Notes under the pieces: model-generated
Told to the model about the DNA's origin: nothing
Seen by the model: only the letters and a program-made list of their open reading frames with translations
Databases searched by the model: none
From: an uncultured Christensenella sp.
GTDB taxonomy: Bacteria; Bacillota; Clostridia; Christensenellales; DTU072
Assembly (NCBI GenBank): GCA_964418255.1
Contig: CAYQKV010000002.1
Coordinates: 108,421-172,420, forward strand
Reading direction: 5' to 3'
DNA: 64,000 nucleotides
Made by a program: the position numbers and the translations under genes
In this document: piece after piece, positions 5,976 to 58,018 of the stretch
Position numbering within the stretch: the stretch's first letter is position 1
Layout: each line of letters opens with the position of its first letter

Positions 5976-6147
5976 TTTTCGGAAAAAACACGGAGTGGAG
6001 AGATTGCGTTGATTTTTTTCGTAAGTGAACCGTCGCTGTACCGACGTACAGAAATATCACCCCCAAAAGCATATATCTTTTCGGGGACCCCGACTAAACT
6101 TACGGAAAAGTGGAAAAAACTCAGATTTTGTCCGCTTTTTACTGCTT

Positions 6148-6346
6148 AAATACTCAAAAAGTAAAAATCGCACTTTTTACTTTTTGCCCTTATGGGGTTC
6201 GAGCAAGGGGAAACCCCTTGCGAACTTACATAACAAGCGGAACGGTACGCTCCGCTTCCTTGTAAGTCCGACTTGCGTGGATAAAGATTTTATCGGCACA
6301 AAGATTAGCGACTTGCCGTAAAATCCCGCGCAACGTCTGGTCGGAA
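6148..6346 (+). repeat. Structured repeat element, subfamily 1, copy 1 (orientation A on + strand)
   Basis: Homologous to 17326-17531(-), 48275-48475(+) and 57230-57428(+). Hairpins: caaaaagtaaaaa/tttttactttttg, gcaagggg/ccccttgc, aagcggaacg/cgctccgctt. Long 3' helix: tccgac..ttgcgtgg..gattttatcggca / tgccgtaaaatc..ccgcgcaa..gtcgga. Confidence 0.85.
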
Positions 6347-6614
6347 AATTTCCGGGCGTAAAGCAACGCGATATATACACTCGTAAAAAGCATATTGACA
6401 AGTAATATTTTATCGCTTACCATAAAATAAATAGGGGTTTAATAATTGATTTCGCACAAAACGGAATCGAAGAAGACGGCTTATTGACAATTTTTGAGAG
6501 GAAAAAATTTTTTTTTACAAATTTCGTGGACAAAACGGCTTGTCGGATTGTTATAGTTTATAGGTGAAAAAAACCGACACTATAAACGCTATAAGAGGAG
6601 GCGTCGGAGCGGAG

Positions 6615-16410: not shown

Positions 16411-16680
16411 TTAAATTCTGTGCATCGCCTGGAAAATCGCTTCGCTTTGAATACGTATGTCTACGCCGATGGAAGAGCCTACCTCTTTGAGTTTGCTGTC
16501 TATGCCGTCGAAGGCAAGGTTCGCTTCGCCGAGGTCGACGAGCATAATCATAGTGAAATAGTCCTGCATAATCGTCTGGGATATGTCCTCGACGTTTACG
16601 TTCATTTCCCATAAAGCGGTCGTCACCTTTGCGATTATACCGCGCTTGTCCGTGCCGATAACTGATACAATTGCTTTCAT
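16411..16680 (-). CDS. ACT-domain protein (UPF0237 family)
   Basis: MKAIVSVIGTDKRGIIAKVT... is an ACT fold signature. The ATG at 16680 is preferred over the track start at 16740. Confidence 0.8.
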   Translation of the reverse strand: MKAIVSVIGTDKRGIIAKVTTALWEMNVNVEDISQTIMQDYFTMIMLVDLGEANLAFDGIDSKLKEVGSSIGVDIRIQSEAIFQAMHRI

Positions 16681-16793
16681 TTTTTCTCCGTTACACCGTT
16701 TTTTTTCTGCTATTATACCAAATTTCCCACAATAAGACAACCGTTTACAAAATAAAACAAAATATTACACGCACCCGAGTCCATAATCAGTTT

Positions 16794-17318
16794 ATGAAAC
16801 CGAGAAAGAAACTAAAAAAAGATAACGGGACGAAAACAGACGAAGCGATGCTGATAAAACAGCAGGCTGAAAGAATAGAAGAATTAAGAGAGGAAAACCG
16901 CGCGCTCGAACTGTCTCTGGAAAGTTACAGAAACAGGGAAAAGGAAATCGTCGCTACGCTCGAATTCGCTAAAAAGAAAGGCGAAGAGTACGTCGCTATG
17001 GTAAGGGTAAAATACGCCCTCGAATGCGACCGTCTCGCAAGGTTCAGAACGAAACTCAAAGCATATAGGACGAAAGAAGAATTGATAAAGGGTTATGACG
17101 ACGCTTACGGACAGCTCAAAGAATGGCAGAACGAACTCGAACAGGCTATCGCGAAAGACTTCGGCAACCCGATGAAAGACTACCTCGGCGAAAGAAAAAG
17201 ATTAAACGACGAACCCGCCCTTAATTACGGCGCGATTATCGGAGAGGGAACGACCGACCTCGAAAACGCAACGCAGATAAGCGAAGAGGAACTTAAAGAA
17301 TTACTTGAACAGATATAA
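16794..17318 (+). CDS. Coiled-coil protein, DivIVA-domain-like
   Basis: Charged heptad-rich sequence (EELREENRALELSLESYRNREKEIVATLEFAKKKGEEY). The ATG at 16794 is preferred over the track start at 16671, which overlaps the ACT gene promoter region. Confidence 0.5.
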   Translation: MKPRKKLKKDNGTKTDEAMLIKQQAERIEELREENRALELSLESYRNREKEIVATLEFAKKKGEEYVAMVRVKYALECDRLARFRTKLKAYRTKEELIKGYDDAYGQLKEWQNELEQAIAKDFGNPMKDYLGERKRLNDEPALNYGAIIGEGTTDLENATQISEEELKELLEQI

Positions 17319-17325
17319 ACGCAAG

Positions 17326-17531
17326 GCTTCCGACCAGTCGTTGCGCGGAGATTTTCCGTCAGTCGCTAACGCTTTGTGCCGATAAAATTTTGTATCCGCG
17401 CAAGTCGGACTTCCGCGGAAGCAAAATGACACATTTTGCTTAATAGTTTAGTTCGCAAGGGGTTTACGCCCCTTGCTCGAACCCCATAAGGGCAAAAAGC
17501 GAAAAGTGCGATTTTCACTTTTTGGGTATTT
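17326..17531 (-). repeat. Structured repeat element, subfamily 1, copy 2 (orientation A on - strand)
   Basis: Reverse complement aligns end to end with 6148-6346. Helices ttgcgcgga/tccgcgcaa, ggaagcaaaatg/cattttgctt, gcaagggg/ccccttgc and caaaaagtgaaaa/ttttcgctttttg. Confidence 0.85.
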
Positions 17532-17672
17532 TGACGTAAAACTTATCGGGTCACCCCGCCCGCCCACCCGATAGAGTGGGTGTTTTTTATCTGTTATCCT
17601 TATCCGCTTTATTTCACTTTATTTACAGAGATACTTAATTAGGGAGAAAACTATAATAAACAATACGAAAGA

Positions 17673-17825
17673 TTTTTGTAAGGGAAGAGCGCGAGAGGGG
17701 AGAAACTTTTTGCTAAAAAAGGTTTCCTCTCTCGCAATTTTAACATACCAACTTACGAAAAGTTTTTGTAAAGAGGGAGCACGAGGGAGAAGAAACTTTT
17801 TGTCAAAAAAGGTTTTCGCCCTCGT
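17673..17825. repeat. Two 'empty' inverted-repeat hairpin units (the same arms that flank subfamily-2 cores, but without a core)
   Basis: Unit 1 (17673-17735): gcgagaggggagaaac-tttttgctaaaaaag-gtttcctctctcgc. Unit 2 (17763-17825): acgagggagaagaaac-tttttgtcaaaaaag-gttttcgccctcgt. About 85-90 bp spacing, continuing into the full element at 17846. Confidence 0.7.
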
Positions 17826-17845
17826 AAACTCTCTAATAAAATTTT

Positions 17846-18115
17846 TGTTTTTGTAAGGGAAGAGCGCGAGAGGGGAGAAACTTATATATTCGACACGAAC
17901 GTGCGCGTACCGAGAGTGTCGCCTTTATGGGGGTAAGCAAGGGGAGTGAACCCCTTGCGAGCTTACATAACAAGCAAAATGTGTCATTTTGCTTCCTTGG
18001 TAGTCCGACTTATGCGGATTAAGAAATCGTCCGCGTGTCGAATTCATCTCGACCGCGAGCGATTTTCCGCATAACGTTTGGTCGGGTGTAGTCTAAAAAG
18101 TTTTCCTCTCTCGCA
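17846..18115 (+). repeat. Structured repeat element, subfamily 2, single core inside inverted-repeat arms
   Basis: Left arm gcgcgagaggggagaaactt (17864-17883). Core begins cgacacgaacg..gtgtcg. Right arm aaagttttcctctctcgc (18098-18115). Core is homologous to the 203-bp units at 56477-57150. Confidence 0.85.
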
Positions 18116-19455: not shown

Positions 19456-19633
19456 CGTTTTGTATTTTTATTTATGCGCGCACGCAGAGCGCGTACGCAT
19501 AAAGAAAAGACGGAGTGCGCATATAGCGTTTTGCCGATTGTCCGGAAAGTCCGCTTCGTTTATGCGGCGGCGAAATTACTTACTTTTCCGAAAGACAAAC
19601 GCAATCTGTTCACACCGTGTAAAGGCGCGAGGT

Positions 19634-22600
19634 ATGATGATGAAAACTAAAAGATGTACGGGTCTGAAAATTGCCGTTACGGCTATCGCGGCGGCGCTGC
19701 TTACGATGTTGCTTTCGGCGTGTTTCGGGACGCATACCGTAATTACGTTTCAGACGAACGGCGGTTCTCCCTGCGAGTCGATTACCGTAGACGGAGAAAC
19801 CGAAAGCATTACGTTGCCCACGCCGACGAGAGACGGTTACGACTTCGACGGGTGGTACGCCAACCGCGCGTTGACCGAGTCCGTTCCGAACGTTCTCACG
19901 GGAGAGAGTATTCCCACCGCAAGCGTTACTTTTTACGCGAAATGGCTCGTTAAACAGATTACCATAACTTTTGTGGCGGGAGACGACGTCGTCGAAAAAC
20001 GCGTGCTCGACTACGACTCGTACGTTTATGCGGAAGATTTTCCGTCTCTTGCCGACTATCCCGATTATCGTTGGAACAACGCTACGTTCAGGGCGCAGTA
20101 CGACCGTACGATAACCGCGGTGAAAGTGACGGTCGAAGACCCGGAATACACCGTGTCTTACTATGTCCCCGGTGAAGACGGTTTTTCCTTATACGCTTCC
20201 CGAAAAGGGACGGAAGGCACGGCTATCGTATCTCCCGAAAATCCCGTTTCTCCCGACGGCGACTCCGCTAAATATTTCGCGGGATGGTACTACGACGAAA
20301 ATTACGTCAATCTCTGCCGCGAGCTTCCGAGCAGTATAGGGGGAGAAAACCTTTCTTTCTACGCTAAGTTCGAAGAGGCGGGAGACGATTCGAGATACTT
20401 ATTCTATGAAGAAACCGCCGACGGAACGGGCGTGACTATTATCGGTTTTACCGTGGTCGGAGGATACCAGCCTACGGTGTCCATTCCTTCCGAGATAGGC
20501 GGCAAACCCGTAGTCGCGTTGGGTACGGGCGGAGAGCCCGCGGCAAAAGGCGCGCTCGGCTCGACGTTTTTGAAACGCGTGGTGGTTCCCGCGTCGGTGC
20601 GGGAGATAAGAGACTGGGCTTTCGCGGGGTGTACCGCGCTCGAAGAGGTTATTTTTACGGGCGACGCGGTTACTTCGATAGGTAAAGGAGCGTTCGCGGG
20701 GTGCGTTTCTCTTGCGGCGTTTAACCTACCCGATAACGTGACGAGCGTGGGCGATTACGCGTTCGCGGGGATAGGAACGGGCGGAACGGAAGACGTCGAA
20801 ATCGACGGGCTTACGGGAAAATGGACGAAAACGGAAATGAAACTTGCGCGTTTCAACTCGGGTTCGGCGAGCAAACTTTCCGCGCTCGGCGCGTATGCGT
20901 TTTATAACTGCCCGCAACTTGTCGGCGTCAAACTCGGCGCGGTTATGAGAGAATTCAACTACCTTGCGTTTATGGGAAGCGGCATTGCCGAAGTGGAATT
21001 TTACGAAGGGGGCAACCTTACGGGCATAGACGGCGCGGTGTATTCGCGTTCGGGAGCGACCCTTTACTATTATCCGCTTAACGGTAAAGTTGAATATACG
21101 ATGCCGCAAAGCGTAACGGCTGTCGCGCCTTACGCGTTCTACGCAAACGGCAATATAAAAACAGTCACGGTTTCGCCGCGGCTTGTTTCGATAGGAGAAA
21201 AAGCCTTCGCCGAGTGCTCTGCGCTCGAAAGCGCGTATTTAAGAGATTCCGTCCTTTCTTCTGTGGGAGAAAGCGCGTTCGAAAACTGCGTGTCTCTCGG
21301 AAGAATAGTTTTCCCTGCGACGCTCGTAACTCTTTCTTCTTCCGCGTTCGCTTCCTGCTCTGCGCTCGAAAGCGTTACGTTCGAAGGAAGCGCGCTTTCC
21401 GCGATAGGGGACAGGGCGTTTGAAAATTGCGTTTCGCTCGGTTCGATTACCGTACCGACGGACGTGACGAGCATAGGAAATTATGCGTTCGGAAATTGTA
21501 CTTCTCTCGCGTATCTGCGGTTCGGGACGAGGAGTAAACTGACGTTCGTCGGCGATTACGCGTTTTACGAATGCAGAAGCATCGGCTCGGTGTTGTTGCC
21601 GTCGGGAATAACTTCGATAGGAAGGTACGCGTTCGCTTCGGAAAGCGGCAGAATGGAATTCGAATTCGACGGAGATACCGATTTAAGCAACCTCGAATAC
21701 ATAGGCGATTGCGCGTTTATGAACACGCGAATAGCTTCGGTTACCATATCGGGGAAAATCGCGTCGAACGACGCGCTCGGGAAATACGTTTTCAAAAACT
21801 GCACTATGCTTAGACAGGCGTTCTTCTCGCCCGCCGCGTATACCGCTGTGCCCGAAGGACTGTTTTACGGTTGTACTTCTCTTACGAGAATAAGATTTTC
21901 GGGAAATATCCGCTCGGTGGGAGCGTACGCGTTTTATAACTGCGCGGCTATGGAATGGGCGGAATTCGGTTCGGGCGTTACGGAAATTTACGAAAGCGCG
22001 TTCGAAAACTGCGTTTCCCTTACCAACCCGGGAGCGGACCAAAGAGTTCTGCCACGCAACCTTACCTATCTCGGGTCGAGGGCGTTTTATAACTGTTCTT
22101 CCCTCGAAACCGTCAATATACCCGCAAATCTTGCGAAAATAGAGAAAGAAACTTTCGCGCGGTGCTCTTCGCTTACCGATATAAACTACGACGACGGTGC
22201 GGTTCTCGCCACGATAGGGGAAAACGCGTTTGCGTACTGTTCGAGCCTGCAAAGGGCGGCTTTGCCCGTTTCCCTTGCGGAGAGGAACGAAGACAACGCG
22301 AGCGGATTTGTGGGAAATCCTTTCTACGGGTGCGCGAATTTGAGAGAATACGTCTTCGCGGGAACGCCAGAAGGAACGTTGTTCGCCGAGGACGGAGTTG
22401 TCTATCGCAAGCTGGAAAAGGCGAGCGTTGAGGGCGAATACGCCGCGGAAAGGGCGATTTACGCGTATCCTACCGCAAAATCCACGGCGACGTTCAATGT
22501 TTCGACAAACGTCGCGGTTATCGACGCGTACGCGTTTTACGGATGCGTAATAAGAGGGCTCGGGTTTGCGAGAAATACCGAAGTCGGCGGAACGGAAAGC

Positions 22601-25600
22601 GTGGTTTTGGTGTCGATAGGGGACTACGCGTTCGCCGACACGCAGATAACGACGGCGAATATTTCCTTCCGCGTGTACGAAATAGGAGAAGGCGCGTTCA
22701 GAAACAGCCAACTGAGCAGCGTGACCGTGGACGGAACTTATATTTACGACGGAATAAGCGATTATTCGATAATAAATACCGATACCGACAGAGCGAACAA
22801 TCTGATTTCCATAGGAGCGTACGCGTTTGCCGAGACTTCGATAGCGACGTTTACCGCGCCGTCGAGAACGGCTTTGCTCGGAGAGGGTGCGCTCAGTTCG
22901 GATTACAAACTTTCGTCGGTGACGCTTACGGGAGGGAATTTAACCGAACTTACGCTCGGCGCGCGGCTTTTCGAAAAGGACAACCTCATTACCGAAATCA
23001 CCCTGCCGTCCTCGGTAGTCGAAGTGGGAGCGTACGCGTTTTATCGCTGTTCCAACCTCGGTTCGGTGCGCTTTGTTTCGGGCGGTTCGTTCGGACTGAC
23101 CATCGGAGACTACGCGTTTTCCGAAGCGCATTATCTGTATGAAATAACTTTGCCGTCCACCGTGGTTTCCCTCGGAACGGGCGTGTTCGACGGCGATACC
23201 AGACTTAAATACGTATACTTCCCGGAGACTCTTACCGTTGCGACCGACCTTGCCGTACCCGACAGAGCTTTTGAAGGTATGCCCGCGCTTAACGAGCTGG
23301 AAATTCCCGAGTATATCTCGAAAATAGGGGAAAAAGCGTTCGCGTCATCCGCGCTTAGAAGCATAACCTTCCTCGGAACGGAAGATTCGGTCGGACTGGA
23401 AATAGCAAGCGAAGCGTTCGCAAAACTCGACGGACTTACCGAAATAACCCTTCCCGCGAATTTAACCGCAATAGGAGAAAGAGCGTTCGCGTATTCTGCG
23501 TTGAAAGAAGTAGTTTACGGAGAGGGCAAAACCTTTACGATAGGCGACGGAGCGTTTGAAGGAACCGCGCTTACCCAATTTACGGCGACGGAAAGAGTGT
23601 CGAAAATCGGGAAGAGAAGTTTTGCAAACGTCGCTACCCTTACCTCTTTTACATCCGCGGATACGGTGACGGAAATACCCGATATGGCGTTCTACGGAGA
23701 CGCGCGCCTTTCGAATTTATCCCTCGGAAACGCGGTGACGAGCCTTGGAAGAGAATGTTTTTACGGAACGGGAATTACCGAATTCCTTTCCGAATCGGTG
23801 ACGGAAATAGGCGTCTCCGCGTTCGGGAATTCGGCGGTTAAGAAAGTATCGTTTGTTTCTTCTTCGAAAATCACGGTGGAAGAAAGAGCGTTCGAAAACG
23901 CGAGAGCGCTTGCGGAAGCGAGCTTCGAAGCGGCGGGAGAAATAGTTATCGGCGAAAACGCGTTCGAAAACAACGCGGCGCTTATCGCGCTTACTGTAAA
24001 AGGCGCGACGGCGGTACTTGCGGACGGGTTCGCTTCGGGAGCGACCTCGCTCGGAGAAGGGTTCTCGTTCGAAGAAACCGACTCTGCGTACGCTAATTAC
24101 AAGTTCGACGAAGAGGAAAAAGTACTGTACTCGGCGGATGGAAAGAAATTCGTATATTATCCCGCGGGCAAGACGGGTTCGGTGTTTACCCTTGCAAGCG
24201 AAGTGGAAGAAATCGGTCCTTACGCGTTCTATGCGAACGCGGGGATTACCGCGCTTATTATAGAAGGGGAAAACGTCGTAAGGAGCGATACCAGTTTCGG
24301 ATATACGAGCGCGGACCTTACTTTCTACGTCGCTTCCGACCTGGTGGAACAGTATATAAACAGATGGCAGACGAGCGCGTTTGCGGCGCGGTCGACCGTG
24401 CTCGGCGGGTTCGTTCTCGCGTTGCAGAGTTCGGGAGATTACAGCGTAACCGAATACCTCGGAGCGGACGACTACGTGGAAATAACCGGCGAAATGACGG
24501 ACGAAGAGGGTAAAACTTACGTCGTTTCTTCCGTCGGAGAAAACGCGTTCAGAAACAATACCGTCATACGGACTCTCGTAATAGACGGAGGGATAAAGAC
24601 GATAGCGAGCGGAGCGTTCCGCAACTGTTACAAACTCGCCTCGGTTACGATAGGAGAAAACGTGACGAGCGTGAAGAGTTACGCGTTTTATAACTGCGCC
24701 GCGCTGGAAAGCGTGGAGTTTGCGGGAGAAAGCAGTCTGATAAGCATAGGAAATTACGCGTTTGCGCGGGACGGTGAGCTCAAAGAATTCTCCGTACCAG
24801 ACGGGGTGGAGAGCATAGGAATATTCGCGTTTTCGGGAGATTACAGTCTTAAAGAAATCACGATAGGAAACGGGCTTGCGGAAATAGGCAACAACGCGTT
24901 CGAAAACTGTTCGTCAATCGTATCCGTCGCTATGCCCGCGTCGCTGTCGAAAATGGGAAGTTACGTTTTCAGCGGTTGCGATAACCTCGTATACCTCGAT
25001 ATAGGCAATCCGTCGGTGTGCTCGATAGAAAGCAACACGTTTAACGGAACGCCCGAAAGTTTGTATTTCTTCGTTCCCGATTCTGCGGCGGCAAGACTTT
25101 ACAAAGCGGACGGGGTGTGGAGAACGCATATCAGCAAAATTCTGTCCGCGGAAGAGCGTTGCGCGGAAGAAGGGTTTGAAAACTACGTCCTTAGAAACGA
25201 CGGGACGGGGTATACGCTTATAGCGTATCTCGGCACGGAAACCGACGTGGAAATCGTATCCGATATTTCCGACGACGTGAAAATCGAAGAAATAGGCGAG
25301 TATGCGATAGGACAGTTTGCGAAAAACGTGACGGTTGATGACGGCGTAAAAGTAATAGGAGAACGCGCGTTCTATCAGGCGAAAAACCTCGCTACGCTCG
25401 TTCTTCCGTCAAGCTTGGAAGAAATCGGTTCTTACGCGTTTCAATATCTCGAAAAATTGACTTCGGTAACCGTAAACGACGGGTCCGTCCTCGCTTCGAT
25501 AGGACCTTACGCGTTTTACGGATGTACGGGACTTACCGAAATCGTGTTGCCCGCTTCTTTAAGAACCGTGGGGGACTACGCGTTTTCGTGCGCGGACGGA

Positions 25601-27775
25601 GAAAGTATGAACTTGAAAACGGCGCTTTTCTTACACGACGCCGTAGGCGGAACGGACGGGACGGGAGCGAGCGTATATATTTCGATAGGAAGAAAGGCGT
25701 TCGCAAACAACGCCGAGCTTAAAACGCTTACGTTCAACTGCCGCGTGTCGGCAATCGGAGACGGCGCGTTCGACGGGTGCGAAAGTCTCGACAGTCTGTA
25801 CCTTAATTACAATCCGACGAGAAACACTTCCGATATGGTGGCTTCGGTAAGCGGAAACGGAGTGTTCGGCGGGTGCGAAAAACTTTCGGTGTTCCTGCCC
25901 ACGACGGCGATAACGGGACAGTACAGGACGGTATGGACGTCGGACTACGACAAACATAAACTTACCGCGGTTACTTACCGCGACACTCTCGGCTTCGTGT
26001 ACGCGGTTACTTCCACGTCGAACAGACAGGTTACCGTTATTAACTATCTCGGCGATGATACCGAAGTTAACTTCCCGACGGAGACGCAAATCGGACAGGA
26101 AGTGTACAGAGTGGTGCGTATAGGCAGAGAGAAATACGGGACTGCGGAAGAGGTAAACGGACGGATTATAGGAAACAACGTTACGAAAGTAACGATACCC
26201 TCCACGGTCGTCACGATAGGAGAGGACGCGTTCAGGGACAGCGAAAATCTTAAAGAAGTCACGATGGGGACGAGCGTAAACACGATAGAAGGATATGCGT
26301 TTGCCGGGTGCAAAAAACTTACCGACATAACCATACCTCTTTCGGTGACGACGATAGAAGCGTACGCGTTTTACGACTGCGACAGTCTTAACACGGGACT
26401 GCGTTTTGCGGAGTCTGTCGCCCCGCCCGCCACCCCCACCCTTATTATCGGAGGATACGCGTTTGCCGAGTGCGACGAACTTGCTTCTTTCTACGTGCCC
26501 AACCACGTCAGAACGATAGGCGGCGTAAGAACGACGGGAAGCGTAAACGTCGGGCATACGTTCGAAAACTGCGTAAACCTTACTAAAATAACTTTCTCGT
26601 CCGACGCGCTCATTACGGCAATCGAAGGATATAACTTCGTGAATACGGCGATTGAAGAAATCGTCCTTCCCCGTTCGCTGGAAACGGTGGCGGATTACGC
26701 GTTTGCAAACTGCTCGAAACTTCTGAGAGTGGTAGTGGAAAGGGAAATCGGCGCGGGCGTTTCCACACCGACGACTGCGGGGAACAACGTGTTCGACGGC
26801 ATAGACAACCCTCAATTAAAAGTTTACGTTCCGTCGGCGTCTTACGACGTGTACGCGGCAAGCCGCGGTTGGAACGTAAAAACGGTAATAGAAAACAACG
26901 TTACGCCCGACGGACTGTTCGCTTATAAACTCGACGGAACGGGCGACGGCGCGTACATAACCCTTACCGACTATCGCGGAACGGAGGAAATCTGCGTCGT
27001 GCCGAGGTTGGTGACGTTGCAAAGCCGTGATTATTACGTTACCACGATAGGCAGATATTTTGCCGCTTCGTACGTGAAAAAAGTCGAGTTCGAAAACGTT
27101 TCGTCGGTTACGGCTTTGGCGGAGTACGCGTTCGCGTCGTGCTATATGCTCGAAGAAATACATCTGCCCGACGGAATAACGACGATAGGAGCGCACGCGT
27201 TCGAAGGGTGCGTAAAACTTACCGATATAACGCTTTCCGCTTCTCTGTCGGAAATCAAAGAATTTACGTTCTATAATTGCAATTCGCTTAAAGAAATCGT
27301 TCTGCCCGAGGAAATTCTCAGCATCGGACCGTCGGCGTTTTACCGCTGTTCCAACCTTTCGAGAGTGGTCGTTAAGTTCGGGAAAAACCTCAACGAAAGC
27401 AACGTGGGCGCGTCGATAGGAAACTCCGCGTTCGGTGACGCGGGCACGGGCGCGGGCGGACTGGCTATTATAGTCCCCGACGACAAATACGCGGTATTCC
27501 GCGCGGGCTGGATTGCGGACAGAGACCGTATTTATTCGGCAAGCAACGTCGTGGGCGACTACGTGGTCAGAATAAACGATATGGGAACCGCGCTTACCCT
27601 CGTGCAGTACGTCGGCAACGCCGAGACGCTTGACCTTACGGAAATTTCTATGATGGGACTGTACGTCGATACAATCGCGGAAAACGCCATAGCGAGCGAA
27701 CTTACTACGATAATCGTGGGTAAAAACGTAGTTTTCCCGTCGGATATTGCGGACAGGATACAGATAAAGGAATAA
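19634..27775 (+). CDS. Giant surface lipoprotein (2713 aa) with a Listeria-Bacteroides-type repeat and many BspA-type leucine-rich repeats
   Basis: Start moved to ATG 19634 (MMMKTKR...LLSAC lipobox). The N-terminal segment FQTNGGS....P.RDGYDFDGWY is followed by dozens of repeats of the form IGxYAFxxCxSLxSVxIPxSVTSIGxxAF. Confidence 0.9.
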   Translation: MMMKTKRCTGLKIAVTAIAAALLTMLLSACFGTHTVITFQTNGGSPCESITVDGETESITLPTPTRDGYDFDGWYANRALTESVPNVLTGESIPTASVTFYAKWLVKQITITFVAGDDVVEKRVLDYDSYVYAEDFPSLADYPDYRWNNATFRAQYDRTITAVKVTVEDPEYTVSYYVPGEDGFSLYASRKGTEGTAIVSPENPVSPDGDSAKYFAGWYYDENYVNLCRELPSSIGGENLSFYAKFEEAGDDSRYLFYEETADGTGVTIIGFTVVGGYQPTVSIPSEIGGKPVVALGTGGEPAAKGALGSTFLKRVVVPASVREIRDWAFAGCTALEEVIFTGDAVTSIGKGAFAGCVSLAAFNLPDNVTSVGDYAFAGIGTGGTEDVEIDGLTGKWTKTEMKLARFNSGSASKLSALGAYAFYNCPQLVGVKLGAVMREFNYLAFMGSGIAEVEFYEGGNLTGIDGAVYSRSGATLYYYPLNGKVEYTMPQSVTAVAPYAFYANGNIKTVTVSPRLVSIGEKAFAECSALESAYLRDSVLSSVGESAFENCVSLGRIVFPATLVTLSSSAFASCSALESVTFEGSALSAIGDRAFENCVSLGSITVPTDVTSIGNYAFGNCTSLAYLRFGTRSKLTFVGDYAFYECRSIGSVLLPSGITSIGRYAFASESGRMEFEFDGDTDLSNLEYIGDCAFMNTRIASVTISGKIASNDALGKYVFKNCTMLRQAFFSPAAYTAVPEGLFYGCTSLTRIRFSGNIRSVGAYAFYNCAAMEWAEFGSGVTEIYESAFENCVSLTNPGADQRVLPRNLTYLGSRAFYNCSSLETVNIPANLAKIEKETFARCSSLTDINYDDGAVLATIGENAFAYCSSLQRAALPVSLAERNEDNASGFVGNPFYGCANLREYVFAGTPEGTLFAEDGVVYRKLEKASVEGEYAAERAIYAYPTAKSTATFNVSTNVAVIDAYAFYGCVIRGLGFARNTEVGGTESVVLVSIGDYAFADTQITTANISFRVYEIGEGAFRNSQLSSVTVDGTYIYDGISDYSIINTDTDRANNLISIGAYAFAETSIATFTAPSRTALLGEGALSSDYKLSSVTLTGGNLTELTLGARLFEKDNLITEITLPSSVVEVGAYAFYRCSNLGSVRFVSGGSFGLTIGDYAFSEAHYLYEITLPSTVVSLGTGVFDGDTRLKYVYFPETLTVATDLAVPDRAFEGMPALNELEIPEYISKIGEKAFASSALRSITFLGTEDSVGLEIASEAFAKLDGLTEITLPANLTAIGERAFAYSALKEVVYGEGKTFTIGDGAFEGTALTQFTATERVSKIGKRSFANVATLTSFTSADTVTEIPDMAFYGDARLSNLSLGNAVTSLGRECFYGTGITEFLSESVTEIGVSAFGNSAVKKVSFVSSSKITVEERAFENARALAEASFEAAGEIVIGENAFENNAALIALTVKGATAVLADGFASGATSLGEGFSFEETDSAYANYKFDEEEKVLYSADGKKFVYYPAGKTGSVFTLASEVEEIGPYAFYANAGITALIIEGENVVRSDTSFGYTSADLTFYVASDLVEQYINRWQTSAFAARSTVLGGFVLALQSSGDYSVTEYLGADDYVEITGEMTDEEGKTYVVSSVGENAFRNNTVIRTLVIDGGIKTIASGAFRNCYKLASVTIGENVTSVKSYAFYNCAALESVEFAGESSLISIGNYAFARDGELKEFSVPDGVESIGIFAFSGDYSLKEITIGNGLAEIGNNAFENCSSIVSVAMPASLSKMGSYVFSGCDNLVYLDIGNPSVCSIESNTFNGTPESLYFFVPDSAAARLYKADGVWRTHISKILSAEERCAEEGFENYVLRNDGTGYTLIAYLGTETDVEIVSDISDDVKIEEIGEYAIGQFAKNVTVDDGVKVIGERAFYQAKNLATLVLPSSLEEIGSYAFQYLEKLTSVTVNDGSVLASIGPYAFYGCTGLTEIVLPASLRTVGDYAFSCADGESMNLKTALFLHDAVGGTDGTGASVYISIGRKAFANNAELKTLTFNCRVSAIGDGAFDGCESLDSLYLNYNPTRNTSDMVASVSGNGVFGGCEKLSVFLPTTAITGQYRTVWTSDYDKHKLTAVTYRDTLGFVYAVTSTSNRQVTVINYLGDDTEVNFPTETQIGQEVYRVVRIGREKYGTAEEVNGRIIGNNVTKVTIPSTVVTIGEDAFRDSENLKEVTMGTSVNTIEGYAFAGCKKLTDITIPLSVTTIEAYAFYDCDSLNTGLRFAESVAPPATPTLIIGGYAFAECDELASFYVPNHVRTIGGVRTTGSVNVGHTFENCVNLTKITFSSDALITAIEGYNFVNTAIEEIVLPRSLETVADYAFANCSKLLRVVVEREIGAGVSTPTTAGNNVFDGIDNPQLKVYVPSASYDVYAASRGWNVKTVIENNVTPDGLFAYKLDGTGDGAYITLTDYRGTEEICVVPRLVTLQSRDYYVTTIGRYFAASYVKKVEFENVSSVTALAEYAFASCYMLEEIHLPDGITTIGAHAFEGCVKLTDITLSASLSEIKEFTFYNCNSLKEIVLPEEILSIGPSAFYRCSNLSRVVVKFGKNLNESNVGASIGNSAFGDAGTGAGGLAIIVPDDKYAVFRAGWIADRDRIYSASNVVGDYVVRINDMGTALTLVQYVGNAETLDLTEISMMGLYVDTIAENAIASELTTIIVGKNVVFPSDIADRIQIKE

Positions 27776-48118: not shown

Positions 48119-48274
48119 ACAAAAGGAAGCGAAACATACCGTTCCGCTTTCGGTTATTTGTACTATAAAATATCGTATCAACCCACCCGCCCGCCCGAAT
48201 TGCTTTTCTTCTTTATCCGCTTCCGGGGTTTAATAAGGAGTCTCCCCTTATTTCGTGAAAGGGTGTAGGGAATT

Positions 48275-48475
48275 CATATTCAAAAAGCGAAAACTACGTT
48301 TTTCGTTTTTTGCCCTTATGGAAATAATTAAGGGGAGTGAACCCCTTGCGGACTTAAATGAAAAGGAAGTCGGTACGAATTCATTCATTATGAGTCCGAC
48401 TTGCGCGGATATAAGGTTTTATCGGCACAAAGCGTAGCGACTGGCGGAAAATCTCCGCGCAACGACTGGTCGGAT
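48275..48475 (+). repeat. Structured repeat element, subfamily 1, copy 4 (partly degenerate)
   Basis: H1 is caaaaagcgaaaa/ttttcgttttttg. H2 is aagggg/cccctt. H4 is ttgcgcgga/tccgcgcaa and tccgac/gtcgga. H3 and the inner part of H4 carry mismatches. Confidence 0.8.
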
Positions 48476-49066: not shown

Positions 49067-49135
49067 TATCAAACCTTGAAAAACCTCGGTTATCTTTACA
49101 AAAAAAGCAAAGTGCGGTATAATTACGTAGACAAA

Positions 49136-50725
49136 ATGAAGAAAAAGTTACTGTTTTTAATTCTTGTCGCGCTTGTTGCGGCGATATTTACGGGTTGCGA
49201 AAAGACGTTCCCGTCCGATTTGTATATCGAGGCGACGGACGTAGTAAACGCGCCCGCAGGGGAGTATTATCTTCCTTATTCCGTCAATAATTTTTCCTCG
49301 TACGAAATGAAATACGATTTGTTCGTTTCGGTGAAGGCATACGTTTTGCCCGACAACACCCCTGTTACAGTCAACAATAACCGCTCGATAACGGTGGAAA
49401 AAGAAAAGACGTATTCGGTCGTAGTGCGGCTTTACGGCGCGGTTGACGGAAAAAATCTGAGTCAGACCAAGTCGTTTACCGTCGAAGCGGAAAAAGCGGA
49501 CAGAGTTATCACGTTTATGCACGAAGACAATACGGTCGTCAAAAAATTTATCGTGCCTTACGGCGGCAGTCTCGCTTTCGACGAGGTGCCCGAACTTCCC
49601 GACAGATACGAACTTTCTGACGAGAGCCATTATACGGAAATCGTTTCAAAACGTTGGGTCGTATACGAAAAAGTAGGGGAAAACACGGAAACGCGCGAAC
49701 TTATCGAAGAGTATCTTACAAACGTAACGGAAAATATTCCCGTGTACAGCGAGTACGTTTATTCTACAAAGCCTCTCGAATGTACGGTAAAGTTCGATAC
49801 CGACGGCGGTTCGGAAATTCCCGACTACCACGGCGATACCGACACGGTTATGCCCAAATCCGCTTCTCCCGTTAAAGACGGATATACGTTCGTAGGGTGG
49901 TGTACCGACGAAGAAAGAACGGAGTTTTATAACTGGGCGCAGAGCGTAAAATTGAAAAAAGATATGGTTTTATACGCCAAATGGGTAAAAAACACGGAAA
50001 ATGCAACGCCGAATTCGAATTTCAATTTTTATCTTTCCGAGGACAACTACGGGAACGAGTTTTATCTGATAGAAGCTAAGGACAAAGAAAATCTCGGCGG
50101 AATTCTCGTTTTGCCGAACAATTATCTCGGCTTGCCCGTAAGAGGAATGACCGAGCGCGCGTTTCAAGGGACGTCGATTACTTCGGTAATAATCCCCAAC
50201 TGCTACGTGCTCGATAATCAGAGAGGGTTCGCCGAATGCAGAAATCTGAAAACCGCTACGATAGAAGCGGGAGGCGTCACCGACACGATTGCGTCGGAAT
50301 TTTTCTATCAATGCACCGCGCTCGAATACGTCGATTTGCCCGACGGAATTAACATAATACGCCCCGGCGCGTTTACGAACTGCCTCTCTTTAAGGGAAAT
50401 AACTTTGCCTTCCTCGCTATATTTCATCAACAGTCGCGCGTTCGTCGGGTGTAAGGCCTTACGGCGGGTGGATATTCCCGATACCGTGACGGTAATAGGA
50501 GAAGAGGCATTTTCGGGATGCGCCGAACTTGCCGAACTCATAATAGGGGAAAAGAGTGGGATAAAAGCAATCGAAACAAACGCGCTTAAAGATACGAAAA
50601 TAACCGAAATAACCTTGCCGTATAAATGGAGTCTTGAGGAAAATCTGCCGATAGACGATAAGAATATCACCGTAAAGTTCTACCCCGACAGACAGGAAGA
50701 GGAAGAAGAGGGAACGGAAGAATAA
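49136..50725 (+). CDS. Lipoprotein with a Listeria-Bacteroides-type repeat and BspA-type LRRs (small paralog of the giant protein)
   Basis: The ATG at 49136 gives MKKKLLFLILVALVAAIFTGC (lipobox). The segment FDTDGGSEIP....DGYTFVGW is followed by IxxxAFxxCxxLxxIxLP repeats. The C-terminal tail is acidic. Confidence 0.85.
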   Translation: MKKKLLFLILVALVAAIFTGCEKTFPSDLYIEATDVVNAPAGEYYLPYSVNNFSSYEMKYDLFVSVKAYVLPDNTPVTVNNNRSITVEKEKTYSVVVRLYGAVDGKNLSQTKSFTVEAEKADRVITFMHEDNTVVKKFIVPYGGSLAFDEVPELPDRYELSDESHYTEIVSKRWVVYEKVGENTETRELIEEYLTNVTENIPVYSEYVYSTKPLECTVKFDTDGGSEIPDYHGDTDTVMPKSASPVKDGYTFVGWCTDEERTEFYNWAQSVKLKKDMVLYAKWVKNTENATPNSNFNFYLSEDNYGNEFYLIEAKDKENLGGILVLPNNYLGLPVRGMTERAFQGTSITSVIIPNCYVLDNQRGFAECRNLKTATIEAGGVTDTIASEFFYQCTALEYVDLPDGINIIRPGAFTNCLSLREITLPSSLYFINSRAFVGCKALRRVDIPDTVTVIGEEAFSGCAELAELIIGEKSGIKAIETNALKDTKITEITLPYKWSLEENLPIDDKNITVKFYPDRQEEEEEGTEE

Positions 50726-52179: not shown

Positions 52180-53304
52180 TTAAAGTCCGAAAAGTTCTCC
52201 GAGCGCGCTCTCGTTAAGTTTGCTTCCGATAACGCATATTTTACCGATTACGTCCGCGCTTCCGCTTCTTACGTCCGCGCCGTCGGGGATATAGTCGAAG
52301 TGTAACCACTCGTTTTCCCCGCGTACGATACCTTTCGCGCGGAGAACCGCTCCGAATTTTTCTTCGTCTCCCAAAGCGGAGAGAATCGCTTCAAGCCGCT
52401 CTTTCGTATAGGTCGCCGTCGTTTCTTTCCCCCACGAAACGAAAACTTCGTCCGCGTCGTGTCCGTGATGATGGTGATGACAGCAGTGTTCGTGTTCATC
52501 TTCCTCGTCGTGGTGATGACAGCAATGTTCGTGCTCGTCGTCCTCGTCGTGGTGATGGTGGCAGTGTTCGTGCTCATCTTCCTCGTCGTGGTGATGGTGG
52601 CAGTGTTCGTGCTCATCTTCCTCGTCGTGGTGATGACAGCAGTGCTCGTCTTCTTCGTCGTGATGATGGCAATGTTCGTGTTCGGAGAGGAGTTCGTCTG
52701 CCATTTTTTTTGCGGAAGAACGGCTTTCCATTGCGGCAAGGACGGTTTTTCCGTCGAGTTCGCTCAAAGGAGAGGCGATAACGGACGCGTTGGGGTTATG
52801 CTCTTTTACGAACGCGAGACATTCCGCGGTTTTCGTTTCGGTCGCGTCGTCGGTGTGGCTAAGCACCACGCAGTCGGCGTTTTCAAGTTGGTCGAGGAAG
52901 AATTCGCCGAAGTTTTTCGCGTACATAAGGCATTTTTTGACGTTCACGACGGTAGTTTTCGTGTTAATAGGCGCGTTGTCGAGACCTCTTTCCACGGCTT
53001 TTTCCACGTCGCTCAGTTTGCCTACTCCCGACGGTTCGATTATTATACGGTCGGGCGAATAGTCCTCGGTTACTTTTTTGAGGGCTTTTGCGAAATCGCC
53101 GACAAGGCTGCAACAAATGCAACCGCTGTTCATTTCCGTGATTTCCACGCCCGCGTCGCGTAAGAAACCGCCGTCTACGCCGATTTCTCCGAATTCGTTT
53201 TCTATAAGGACGACTTTTTCGCCTTTATAGGCTTCTTTTATCAGTTTTTTGATTAAAGTGGTCTTTCCCGCTCCGAGAAAGCCCGAAAAAATATCTATTT
53301 TCAT
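52180..53304 (-). CDS. COG0523/CobW-family metallochaperone GTPase with a long His/Cys/acidic repeat insert
   Basis: Walker A GFLGAGKTT, the CxCC motif GCICCS, a CobW C-domain, and about 75 aa of (HEHC[C/H]HHHDEEDE)n. The ATG at 53304 is preferred over the track start at 53367. Confidence 0.85.
   Translation of the reverse strand: MKIDIFSGFLGAGKTTLIKKLIKEAYKGEKVVLIENEFGEIGVDGGFLRDAGVEITEMNSGCICCSLVGDFAKALKKVTEDYSPDRIIIEPSGVGKLSDVEKAVERGLDNAPINTKTTVVNVKKCLMYAKNFGEFFLDQLENADCVVLSHTDDATETKTAECLAFVKEHNPNASVIASPLSELDGKTVLAAMESRSSAKKMADELLSEHEHCHHHDEEDEHCCHHHDEEDEHEHCHHHHDEEDEHEHCHHHHDEDDEHEHCCHHHDEEDEHEHCCHHHHHGHDADEVFVSWGKETTATYTKERLEAILSALGDEEKFGAVLRAKGIVRGENEWLHFDYIPDGADVRSGSADVIGKICVIGSKLNESALGELFGL
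52455..52690 (-). repeat. In-frame tandem DNA repeats (about 33-39 bp) encoding the His-rich tract
   Basis: 52561-52599 and 52600-52635 are identical for 36 nt. Flanking units are diverged copies. Confidence 0.8.
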
Positions 53305-53375
53305 TTTCCGTAAACCTCCGTTAAAGAAAATTTTTTGAGTTTTGTATTTTTTTGCCGCTTTGCGCAAAACTATCG

Positions 53376-55315: not shown

Positions 55316-56467
55316 ATGAAATTGAGTAAAGTATTTGATTTGATTAAAAAAGAAGAAGAACGCCAGAGCCGAAACATAGAACTTATCGCGAGCGAAAATT
55401 TTTGCAGCGAAGACATTATGAAAGCGGTGGGCAGTTGCCTTACGAATAAATACAGCGAAGGGTATCCGGGTAAAAGATATTACGGCGGGTGCGAAGTCGT
55501 AGACGAGATAGAGACATATTGTATAGAGATGTGGCAAAAAGTGTTCAATACCGATTACCACGTCAACGTCCAGCCCCACAGCGGTTCGAGCGCGAACCTT
55601 GCTTCTTACCAGGCGATTCTTGTTCCCGGAGACAAGGTTCTCAGTATGGAACTTAACAACGGCAGTCATCTTACCCACGGTTCGGCGGTAAACGCGAGCG
55701 GAAAACTCTATAACTTTTCTTTTTACGGAGTGGACGAAAGAGGTTATATCGATTACGAAGACGCGAGAAAGAAAGCTCTCGAAATCCGTCCGAAACTCAT
55801 AGTGGCGGGCGCGAGCGCGTATTCGAGAATAATCGATTTCGCCAAATTTTCCGAGATAGCGAAAGAAGCCGGCGCGCTTCTTATGGTAGACATCGCGCAT
55901 ATAGCCGGACTTGTCGCTACGGGTTATCATCCTACGCCGTTCGGGTATGCCGATATAGTAACTACGACTACGCATAAGACGCTGAGAGGACCGAGAGGCG
56001 GTTTGATTTTCTGTAAGGAAGAACTTGCCAAAAAAATCGACTCGGCAATCTTCCCGGGAACGCAGGGCGGACCTTTGCAACACGTTATCGCAGGCAAAGC
56101 AATCGCCGCGGAAGAAGCGTTGACACCCGAGTACAAGGAGTATATAGGAAAGGTAGTCGAAAGCTGTCGCGTTATGGCGGAGGAGTTCGTAAAAATGGGC
56201 TATAAGGTCGTCACGGGCGGCACCGACAACCATCTTTTCCTTGTGGACTTGACGGACAAAGGAGTAAGCGGAAAACAGGTGCAGGAGGCTTGCGACGCAG
56301 TCGGTATAACCCTCAACAAAAATTGCGTGCCCAACGAAACCCGTTCTCCTATGCAGACGAGCGGCGTGAGAATAGGCACCGCGGCAATGACAACAAAAGG
56401 CTTTACCGCAAAAGATTTTGTCGAAACCGCTCATAAAATCGATAAAGTTATTAAAAATATTTTATAA
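55316..56467 (+). CDS. glyA: Serine hydroxymethyltransferase
   Basis: [32 protein letters not shown] and [14 protein letters not shown] (PLP lysine). At 383 aa it is shorter than the roughly 415 aa of well-known GlyA proteins. Confidence 0.95.
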
Positions 56468-56476
56468 ATTTAGATT

Positions 56477-57150
56477 GCGAGAGAGGAAAACTTTTTAGAC
56501 TACACCCGACCAAACGTTATGCGGAAAATCGCTCGCGGTCGGCATTTAGCCGACGCGCGGACGATTTTTTTAATCCGCATAAGTCGGACTACCAAGGAAG
56601 CAAAATGACACATTTTGCTTATTATGTAAGTTCGCAAGGGGTTTACTCCCCTTGCTTATCCCCATAAGGGCGACACTCTCGGTACACGCCCGTTCGTGTC
56701 GATTATCTCCGACCACACGTTATGCGGAAAATCGCTCGCGGTCGGCATTCAGCCGACGCGCGGACGATTTTTTTAATCCGCATAAGTCGGACTACCAAGG
56801 AAGCAAAATGACACATTTTGCTTATTATGTAAGTTCGCAAGGGGTTTACTCCCCTTGCTTATCCCCATAAGGGCGACACTCTCGGTACACGCCCGTTCGT
56901 GTCGATTATCTCCGACCACACGTTATGCGGAAAATCGCTCGCGGTCGGCATTTAGTCGACGCGCGGACGATTTTTTTTATCCGCATAAGTCGGACTTCCA
57001 AGGAAGCAAAATGACACATTTTGCTTGTTATTTAAGTTCGTAAGGGGTTCACTCCCCTTACTTATCCCCATAAGGGCGACACTCTCGGTACACGCCCGTT
57101 CGTGTCGAATATATAAGTTTCTTCTCCCTCGCGCTCCCTCTTTACAAAAA
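56477..57150 (-). repeat. Structured repeat element, subfamily 2: three tandem 203-bp cores inside a single pair of inverted-repeat arms
   Basis: Unit phase markers gacca[a/c]acgttatgcgg lie at 56508, 56711 and 56914 (period 203). Arms are gcgagagaggaaaacttt (56477-94) and aagtttcttctccctcgcgc (57115-34). Units are nearly identical. Confidence 0.9.
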
Positions 57151-57229
57151 CTTTCCTTATTTATGTATTTAATCTTTCCCTTACATTAAGTGTAAACTTA
57201 AATGGATGGAAAAGAAAAAGGAATAAAAT

Positions 57230-57428
57230 AAATTCAAAAAGTGGAAAGCACATTTTTCACTTTTTGCCCTTACAGGGGTCGAGCAGGGGAATATCCCCTG
57301 CGAACTGTGGATATAAGGAAGTCGGTACGACTTTCTTCCTTATAAGTCCGCCTTACACGGAAATAAATTTTATCCGCACAAAGGTTTTACCGATTGCGGT
57401 AAAATTCCGTGTAACGTTTGGTCGGAAG
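57230..57428 (+). repeat. Structured repeat element, subfamily 1, copy 8
   Basis: H1 is caaaaagtggaaa/ttttcactttttg. H2 is gcagggg/cccctgc. H3 is aaggaagtcg/cgactttcttcctt. H4 is ttacacgga/tccgtgtaa and aattttatccgca/tgcggtaaaatt. Confidence 0.85.
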
Positions 57429-57544
57429 CCTGCCGCCGTTTGGTTGGAAGCTTGCCTTGACTATTTTAGTTATAATGTAGTATACTTTATTTAAGGTAGA
57501 TGTTTACCTAAAATATATTTTGTCATATTAGGAGGATAGTTATT

Positions 57545-58018
57545 ATGACTGTATTAAGCGGTTTGGCGGCGATGCAACCGTGGCTTATGTGGCTTATAAT
57601 CATACTTGCGGCGGTAATCGTTTTCGGCGTTATTATGCACTTTATCAACCGTTCGTTCCGCATCAAGTACGATTTGAACCTTTTCGGCGGCGGCTTGCTT
57701 ATGGCTATCGCGCTTGCAAGCGCGGTCGGCGGCTTTTTCTTGGTTAAAGGAGAATCTAAAATCGGATACGCGCTGTTTGCGCTTACGGCGATACTTATTA
57801 TCGTGACGCTTATTTACGACGTAAAAAAATGCGGAGGAATGGGCGTCGTAGCTCTTATATGTCAAATTCTCTTCTCGGTAGGTTCGATTTTATTGATATT
57901 CGATTTCTTCGGGAATAAATCCCGTTCGTCGGTCTCGCACTCGATTCGCGAGGACAGAATCGTTAGAAGAGAACGTGAAAGAAGAGGATATAACGACCGC
58001 GACCGCGGATATTATTGA
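57545..58018 (+). CDS. Small membrane protein with an Arg/Asp-rich C-terminal tail
   Basis: 4 TM segments, then RERERRGYNDRDRGYY. Good RBS (taggagga). Confidence 0.6.
   Translation: MTVLSGLAAMQPWLMWLIIILAAVIVFGVIMHFINRSFRIKYDLNLFGGGLLMAIALASAVGGFFLVKGESKIGYALFALTAILIIVTLIYDVKKCGGMGVVALICQILFSVGSILLIFDFFGNKSRSSVSHSIREDRIVRRERERRGYNDRDRGYY

Follow-up and report, generated by a model that had tools for sequence, protein, structure and literature searches.

We have found a family of small, hairpin-rich repeats in the intergenic regions of Christensenellales, three members of which are arranged head to tail directly downstream of the serine hydroxymethyltransferase gene glyA in a 64-kb stretch of an uncultured Christensenella sp. 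genome (contig CAYQKV010000002.1; "the window" hereafter means this whole stretch of 64,000 nt). The family has sharp ends and a conserved secondary structure, the site behind glyA is empty in relatives, the units of the array are of unequal age, and strains carry different unit haplotypes. We consider it probable that the unit is a member of a clade-restricted family of non-coding, non-autonomous mobile DNA and that the array was built stepwise by insertion, unequal crossover and gene conversion. The element is a well-behaved instance of something already known and does not represent a novel type of replicon.

The gene upstream of the repeat block, glyA (55316-56467, forward strand; Pfam SHMT, PF00464, 9.6e-163), is followed 10 nt after its stop codon by the left arm of an imperfect hairpin and 38 nt after it by the first of three whole units enclosed in that hairpin (56506-57114, forward strand; the exact total of three and the junction between units 2 and 3 are those of this window's assembly alone). 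Unit 1 (56506-56708) is a complete 203-nt element with hairpins P1-P4, to which units 2 (56709-56911) and 3 (56912-57114) are joined head to tail. Tandem Repeats Finder (TRF) reported one array at 56506-57112 with a period of 203, 3.0 copies, 97% matches and 0 indels, and a repeat search of the window placed the unit starts at 56506, 56709 and 56912 with identities of 100, 99 and 95%. The two internal junctions have the same sequence (GATTATCT followed directly by CCGACCAC), which originates from the 3' end of the element itself. With no flank included, the period is as long as the whole element, which indicates an element-end-specific step and not a random duplication. Only positions 8 and 42 distinguish unit 1 from unit 2, the latter being like unit 3 at position 8 and like unit 1 from position 45 on. 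Unit 3, which retains the ancestral 3' end (GAATATAT), differs from each of the others at 11 positions, including the compensatory pair C130T and G149A that keeps a base pair of P3. A single copy of the same subfamily at 17884-18085 (reverse strand) is 202 nt long and has 18-19 differences from the array units, which are closer to one another than to it. An earlier note on this DNA had described three head-to-tail 203-bp cores of exact period directly after glyA, the first two near-identical and the third more changed with a compensatory change, and internal junctions that lack the flanking arms. The description is correct, its marks at 56508, 56711 and 56914 being in the same phase with a shift of 2 nt, and its core is indeed a discrete, structured, repeated unit.

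The inverted-repeat arms that had been reported around the array, and around a single core at 17864/18098, are present as written. They constitute an independent hairpin-module family, a separate inverted repeat that encloses the unit. At glyA, the left arm (56471-56505, forward strand; core gcgagagaggaaaacttt, 56477-56494) is followed by 8 nt (gactacac) that abut unit 1, and the right arm with the module tail (57115-57151, forward strand; core aagtttcttctccctcgcgc, 57115-57134) was delimited from the sequence itself, by repeat search and by folding. The left arm recurs exactly at 18097-18114 (reverse strand) and with 1 mismatch at 17718-17735 (reverse strand), with 4 matches found compared to 0.11 expected. 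Folding of the arms after removal of the insert gives an imperfect hairpin (z = -2.8 at glyA and -5.0 at the 17864 locus). The module measures ~75-90 nt, and a tandem of three occupies 17664-18115. In two stand-alone modules, identified by repeat search and folding (17664-17737 and 17754-17827, forward strand; z = -3.2 and -3.5), the loop is empty (TTTTTGCTAAAAAA); the third carries the 17884-18085 copy in its loop (arms 17864-17883 and 18097-18114). The junction of arm and unit (ctttttagactacac followed by CCGACC) is shared by the glyA locus, 18086-18114 (reverse strand) and contigs L049, L074 and L076. The four divergent copies of the window lack the arms, as does L013, which is the closest among foreign copies of the array subfamily.

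A profile of the unit identified 8 units at 5 intergenic loci within the window. The four divergent copies among them are located at 6144-6344 (reverse strand, intergenic; profile search and alignment), at 17330-17533 (forward strand, 11 nt after the stop of the open reading frame (ORF) 16671-17318), in the HU-rplI spacer at 48272-48473 (reverse strand; a 99% identical copy occurs in strain L085), and, in inverted orientation 111 nt past the array, at 57226-57425 (reverse strand; nhmmer 1.8e-49). A two-anchor pattern of invariant positions was searched over 185,579 species-representative genomes and yielded 48 loci, almost all in six Christensenellales-type metagenome-assembled genomes (MAGs) with many copies per MAG. 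Metagenome contigs yielded 22 matches, mostly from the same assemblies, together with one further metagenome and a human-gut contig. Overall, about 60 further copies were found outside the window, in six Christensenellales genomes, and the named glyA homologues belong to Christensenellaceae. Most family members are single chromosomal copies, and their neighbors are housekeeping genes, such as glyA, rplI, hup and cysS. An integron attC site or gene cassette was rejected on the grounds that the copies are dispersed beside housekeeping genes with no cassette arrays. Viral contigs contained no match to the pattern and plasmids and phages nothing similar, and a phage, plasmid or viral origin was discarded on these sets. 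A pattern for head-to-tail adjacency had 0 matches in JGI metagenome contigs, spurious ORFs spanning the junctions retrieved no record when used as probes for arrays in other assemblies, and look-ups of the ORFs at 57545 and 16671 found no record. In the literature on small structured intergenic repeats we found none described for Christensenellales.

The 5' boundary of the element is sharp at CCGACC, with unrelated flanks upstream, and a short-read contig of the same strain (L049) ends one base before this motif. The long form (~200 nt), found in the window genome and three others, consists of hairpins P1, P2, P3 and P4 followed by an A/T-rich tail. The short form (~115 nt), found in three genomes, consists of P1 and P2, which make up the ~115-nt core, followed by a U-run. 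P1 is 86 nt long, is closed by CCGAC/GUCGG and has a conserved foot (CCGACCAnnCGUU / AAGUCGGACU). A single unit folds into four separate hairpins (z = -7.1 as RNA and -8.1 as DNA). Compensatory double changes occur in 25 of 54 pairs among the window copies. Across 57 distinct copies, P1 and P2 are 97.2% paired, compared to 85% in shuffles and at most 45% for slid partners, and double changes affect 20 of their 34 pairs, a number that 0 of 500 shuffles reached. Local small hairpins inside the P1 arms were rejected as the selected structure, because the partners that compensate TG-to-CA changes of the 5' arm lie in the distant 3' arm alone. One-sided G·U states (~15 cells) and A·C states (~12 cells) are rare relative to the 295 double changes. 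Since the two are balanced, pairing is equally good on both strands and no RNA strand is favored; assigning the strand from these cells gave no decision, and the structural constraint would fit single-stranded DNA at least as well as RNA.

The unit has no coding capacity and no terminal inverted repeats, its 5' CCGACC pairing with positions 78-82 and not with the 3' end (…GTGTCGAATAT). No target-site duplication was seen as flanking direct repeats at the window copies, and the spacers of relatives could not be aligned. The 8 nt before unit 1 (GACTACAC) were considered as a target duplication and rejected as unconvincing, with 5 of 8 positions matching the element tail. Upstream of CCGACC no consistent -35/-10 promoter was detected among the unrelated flanks. 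Modules other than the core vary. The human-gut contig (L055, 1-240) contains a copy without P4 (…CCCCCTAA joined to AATATA), followed directly by a second, unlike copy, so P4 is apparently a module that is optional or can be deleted. A conserved G+C-rich terminator-like hairpin (CCCGCCCACCC-GATAGAG-TGGGTG, then T6) follows several copies of the long form, from different genomes, at 10-30 nt past their 3' ends (window 17561-17590; L067 ~3335-3385, on the same contig as L029; L010; L011) and may be an optional fifth module.

Relatives lack the block behind glyA. Where glyA is 94% (L077, L078) or 91% (L079-L084) identical to that of the window, the next gene, an ORF of 147-154 aa, starts 49-52 nt after it, followed in L077 and L078 by a DUF975 gene, as in the window. 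The spacer between glyA and the next gene in the window measures 1077 nt and contains the hairpin module, the three units and the inverted copy. This difference in spacer length indicates that the whole block is a lineage-specific acquisition. In relatives, glyA and the next gene probably form an operon, and the inserted block may have uncoupled the two; it moved the next genes from ~50 nt to ~1.1 kb downstream of glyA, probably an operon rewiring. A sigma-70-like site (TTGACT-18-TATACT, 57457-57486) lies directly past the repeat block, 59 nt before the next gene. At other loci, the HU-rplI spacer of the other strain is occupied by the element and offers no empty site, and comparison of the 6144 locus with L073 is uninformative as to an empty site, since the downstream gene differs.

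Two independent ENA assemblies (L074 and L076) from strains 98.8% identical upstream contain the arm, a unit, the same unit/unit junction and a second unit, inside which the contigs end. The tandem junction is therefore real, and the worry of the earlier note that the triplication could be an assembly artefact is answered from the arm through unit 1 and the junction to unit 2. The two units of these strains differ from each other at positions 8 and 42, just as units 1 and 2 of the window do. Both have a unit-3-type body (67T, 86T, 116G, 121T, 130T, 139C, 149A) and a new shared change, T142G. We read these haplotypes as concerted evolution by gene conversion or unequal exchange. The 2 versus 11 differences within the window array show that its three units are not of one age, with units 1 and 2 near-identical and unit 3 older. 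In its pattern, unit 2 resembles a recombination product between units 3 and 1, as would be expected from one unequal crossover in a dimer of units 1 and 3.

Short-read Logan contigs (L049, L075, L086-L089) end at or just inside the element, either before CCGACC after glyA or within P1 in the HU-rplI spacer, and the family thus fragments assemblies of these genomes.

In the history that we favor, this lineage would first have acquired a copy within the loop of an unrelated hairpin module, shortly behind glyA. As the most likely route to a dimer, a second copy would then have landed exactly at the end of the first. The last four bases of the 5' flanks favor W-T-W-T immediately before the element, with T at -1 in 34 of 53 flanks, and the element's own 3' end (…GAATAT/…TATCT) matches this A/T-rich preference, which makes insertion at the end of a resident copy plausible as the origin of the dimer. 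Unlike subfamily members also abut head to tail elsewhere, with zero spacer in L055 (…AATATA joined to CCGACC) and with spacers of 22-45 nt in L020 and L012, pointing to arrival beside resident copies. The third unit would have arisen by one unequal homologous crossover between two units, and gene conversion or further unequal exchange would continue to reshuffle them. The P1 foot, the lack of terminal inverted repeats and of visible target duplications, and the pairing on both strands suggest that folded single-stranded DNA is recognized by a trans-acting HUH/Y1-type transposase, by analogy with REPINs or IS200/IS605 derivatives.

Several points weigh against this interpretation. No transposase or other mobility enzyme was found among the window ORFs or beside ~60 copies, and the mechanism of movement is therefore hypothetical. 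Pfam searches of 30 window ORFs detected no transposase, HUH enzyme, reverse transcriptase or nuclease, and clustering of the ORFs within 600 nt of the ~60 copies revealed no recurrent small partner gene, only paralogous ABC ATPases, leucine-rich repeat proteins and syntenic housekeeping genes; an autonomous parent or partner gene was rejected within the range of these two analyses. The empty site at glyA comes from relatives with 94% or 91% identity in this gene and not from a near-identical strain, and neither precise ends nor a target duplication can be verified from it. The first dimer could equally be an in-situ, element-exact duplication, the array units being mutually closest in the window. 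Some copies at orthologous positions across species (L033/L034, L023/L041, and window 17330 versus L021) argue for long retention or function rather than high mobility. Finally, same-strand placement after stop codons and terminator-like hairpins fit a role at the RNA level.

This last point leads to a reading that is possible, albeit unlikely, and compatible with mobility: the unit may be a functional RNA module of 3' untranslated regions (3'-UTRs), and the array a tandem duplication of it. Read-through transcription from the upstream gene would include P1 as a protective or regulatory hairpin that a terminating ribosome can open, with P2 (and P4) acting as intrinsic terminators. Placement argues for such a role. 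The upstream gene is on the same strand for 34 of 52 copies; 16 copies start 2-7 nt, and 21 of the 52 start 2-16 nt, after the stop of a substantial ORF, compared to ~0.8 and ~2 expected under a rough null (P~1e-16). Stop triplets peak at flank offset -9 (10 of 46 flanks against ~2.6 expected). The upstream gene is on the opposite strand for the other 18 copies, however, so that one third are antisense to it, and 5 copies lie between genes both on the other strand. Terminator-like features are consistent with the module, in that the short form ends in a hairpin and U-run and that unit 3 and the 17330 copy both contain sites flagged as terminator-like, but three terminator modules in a row after glyA have no obvious purpose, and relatives manage with a 50-nt spacer. 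The retention of some positions across species and the conservation of structure through compensatory changes likewise speak for function, although there is no conserved promoter and the balance of G·U and A·C states favors no RNA strand.

A further reading is doubtful, namely an undescribed class of structured mobile element, restricted to Christensenellales, whose integration would be aimed at the first few nucleotides past stop codons (peak spacing 6 nt) and at the 3' ends of resident copies. Targeting would then be coupled to the ends of genes, which might be reached by recognition of terminating ribosomes or transcripts, or by pairing of the P1 foot with target DNA. The latter might be hinted at by partial copies of the element's first 11-16 nt, located 22-23 nt upstream of a full copy (14 nt in L019) at 5-6 of 56 copies with at most 5 mismatches, compared to ~0.4 expected with at most 4 mismatches. 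In the window, the partial 22-nt duplicate of the 57226-57425 copy's 5' end (CCAACCAAACGG...) lies directly upstream of that copy (57415-57456, reverse strand; TRF period 22); the others are at ~6407-6430 and 6654-6676 in L012, at 1578-1600 and 1796-1818 in L020, and at ~7131-7146 in L019. To our knowledge, no transposon family has been shown to target gene ends and its own 3' ends in such a manner.

We regard as improbable that the array is an integrated multimer of a small rolling-circle replicon, viroid-like or driven by a HUH-type Rep, or that it stems from one event of slipped or rolling replication. The earlier note had favored replication of this kind, and one part of its argument stands: a step that respected the element ends made the array, as whole units run end to start with an exact period. 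The remainder is at odds with the unequal ages of the units, the apparently recombinant unit 2 and the homogenization resembling gene conversion. The 3' subterminal hairpin (P4) of every unit and the A/T-rich tail behind it form an arrangement that resembles HUH nick sites, but the overall fold of four separate hairpins is not the rod-like structure that had been claimed. At gathering thresholds, the sole Rfam 15 match in the window was a tRNA, and a search of 56400-57500 at E<=10 gave four chance-level matches, none a ribozyme; the proposed check for hammerhead, twister, HDV-like, hatchet and pistol ribozymes therefore produced no match at either level. Head-to-tail neighbors recur in the family, but those in L020, L012 and L055 are members of different subfamilies and not sister copies, the family consists mostly of single chromosomal copies, and viral contigs, plasmids and phages contain nothing similar. 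Two or more separate events, combined with homologous recombination, account for the array with no need of rolling-circle replication; a rolling-circle or HUH-type step is conceivable in the making of the first dimer. That the triplication is merely an assembly artefact of the repeat is very improbable, for even though short-read assemblies break at the element and no other assembly than that of the window shows three units, diagnostic sites distinguish the units from one another, and L074 and L076 contain the arm, a unit, the junction and a second unit.

Other repeats were observed near the element and elsewhere in the window. Short repeat modules occur upstream of copies (tcggtgtgaaaagaaag…gccgcatct; ggggaaggtgtcgg…gaggggtagattat; a hairpin, gtgaagttcggc…gccgagtgaag) and downstream of them (~110 nt, ending AAGGGGGCTTGGAGC…CCCCCTTAATTATA), as seen in L003, L009, L030, L032 and L037; L006, L011 and L017; L015, L021, L024, L045 and L048; and L022, L026, L043, L047 and L048. 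Intergenic DNA in these bacteria resembles a mosaic of several families of repeats. Within coding sequence, a CobW/COG0523-type GTPase gene (52180-53367, reverse strand) contains an in-frame 39-nt tandem repeat (52472-52668; 4.6-4.8 copies by TRF), the coding strand of which would encode an Asp/Glu/His/Cys-rich stretch. The orthologous cobW-like ORF in six strains of a related species (L079-L084) measures 377, 377, 390, 403, 416 and 429 aa; these steps of 13 aa, or 39 nt, show that the repeat number varies between strains. A 2771-aa ORF (19460-27775) has internal repeats of ~70-150 nt (families D4, D5, D7, D11, D12 and D14), and a 549-aa ORF (49076-50725) contains BspA-type leucine-rich repeats and Listeria-Bacteroides repeat domains. 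Homologues of the latter occur near elements in other genomes only because the protein family is paralogous.

Proteobacteria and a few Firmicutes are well known to carry repeats such as REP/REPIN, ERIC and Correia, which influence the stability of mRNAs, termination and the plasticity of the genome in these hosts, and Christensenellales are a heritable, health-associated gut clade. The family described here is compact and its structure is unusually well supported, and copies are placed 2-7 nt after stops, in hairpin loops and at the ends of the family's own copies. The precise placement just after stop codons is the most interesting point; should its enzyme and targeting rule become known, this family would be a clean system in which to ask how repeats of this kind select the ends of genes. 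That short-read assembly breaks exactly at the element boundary is of practical relevance for MAG quality.

Among known systems, IS30 and IS21 form (IS)2 head-to-tail dimers, and tandem repeats evolve by unequal crossover and gene conversion. The array resembles ordinary tandem-repeat dynamics in its apparently chimeric middle unit, identical junctions and concerted haplotype changes between strains, but differs from simple slippage in that the first duplication is element-exact with no visible microhomology. In function, a tentative analogy can be drawn to a SPRITE-like terminator repeat of 3'-UTRs, based on P2 with its U-run and a strand bias of 34 to 18, with one third of copies antisense. 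PATEs are non-autonomous elements derived from IS200/IS605 that move by a single-stranded DNA "peel and paste" mechanism. Our element shares with them asymmetric ends, the lack of inverted terminal repeats and of visible target duplications, hairpins near the ends, and insertion after a short A/T-rich motif, and a circular single-stranded DNA intermediate is conceivable. It differs from them in its weak W-T-W-T preference instead of a fixed 4-5-mer, in a 5' hairpin that begins at nucleotide 1, in that P1 and P4 are unrelated in sequence, and in that no TnpA or TnpB was found nearby.

Traits of miniature inverted-repeat transposable elements (MITEs) are evident in that the element is small, non-coding and multicopy, with presence/absence between relatives. 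Like the classical MITEs (Correia/NEMIS, ERIC, RUP; PMC2229807), it is small, non-autonomous and co-located with genes, and RNA hairpins of ERIC and NEMIS are known to influence flanking mRNAs (PMC2229807). Unlike them, it has no terminal inverted repeats, TA ends or visible target-site duplication. The YPAL/RU-2 and CIR-type repeats of enterobacteria and alphaproteobacteria (Delihas review, PMC2229807) are likewise not typical MITEs, being ~110-170 bp long with internal and not terminal inverted repeats, as is the case here. YPAL targets sites in or near dyad symmetry (PMC2229807), and the unit here sits in a hairpin loop; CIR elements consist of several arms joined by linkers (PMC2229807), as do the hairpins of our element. 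In contrast, sequences and hosts are unrelated, YPAL produces target duplications of 3-26 bp (PMC2229807) where none were seen here, and neither stop-codon adjacency nor head-to-tail arrays are described for YPAL or CIR in PMC2229807.

In its mode of action the element resembles repeats of the REP/REPIN or YPAL/CIR type (PMC3116915; PMC2229807), but the missing terminal inverted repeats set it apart from classical MITEs and the missing fixed target motif from IS200/IS605 derivatives. REP/REPIN elements are mobilized by a single-copy RAYT (Bertels & Rainey 2011, PMC3116915). The element described here differs from them in being longer and modular (P1 and P2, with or without P3 and P4), in having GTAG/CTAC beside the foot only in some subfamilies, in arrays that run head to tail and do not alternate, and in that no RAYT was seen within 600 nt of ~60 copies or among the window ORFs. 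Like REP/REPIN elements, it has no transposon-type terminal inverted repeats and no enzyme gene beside its copies; it is short, non-coding, multicopy and intergenic, is clustered and persists in its lineage, and is built on a long imperfect hairpin (P1, 86 nt) whose foot is conserved and whose upper stem covaries freely.

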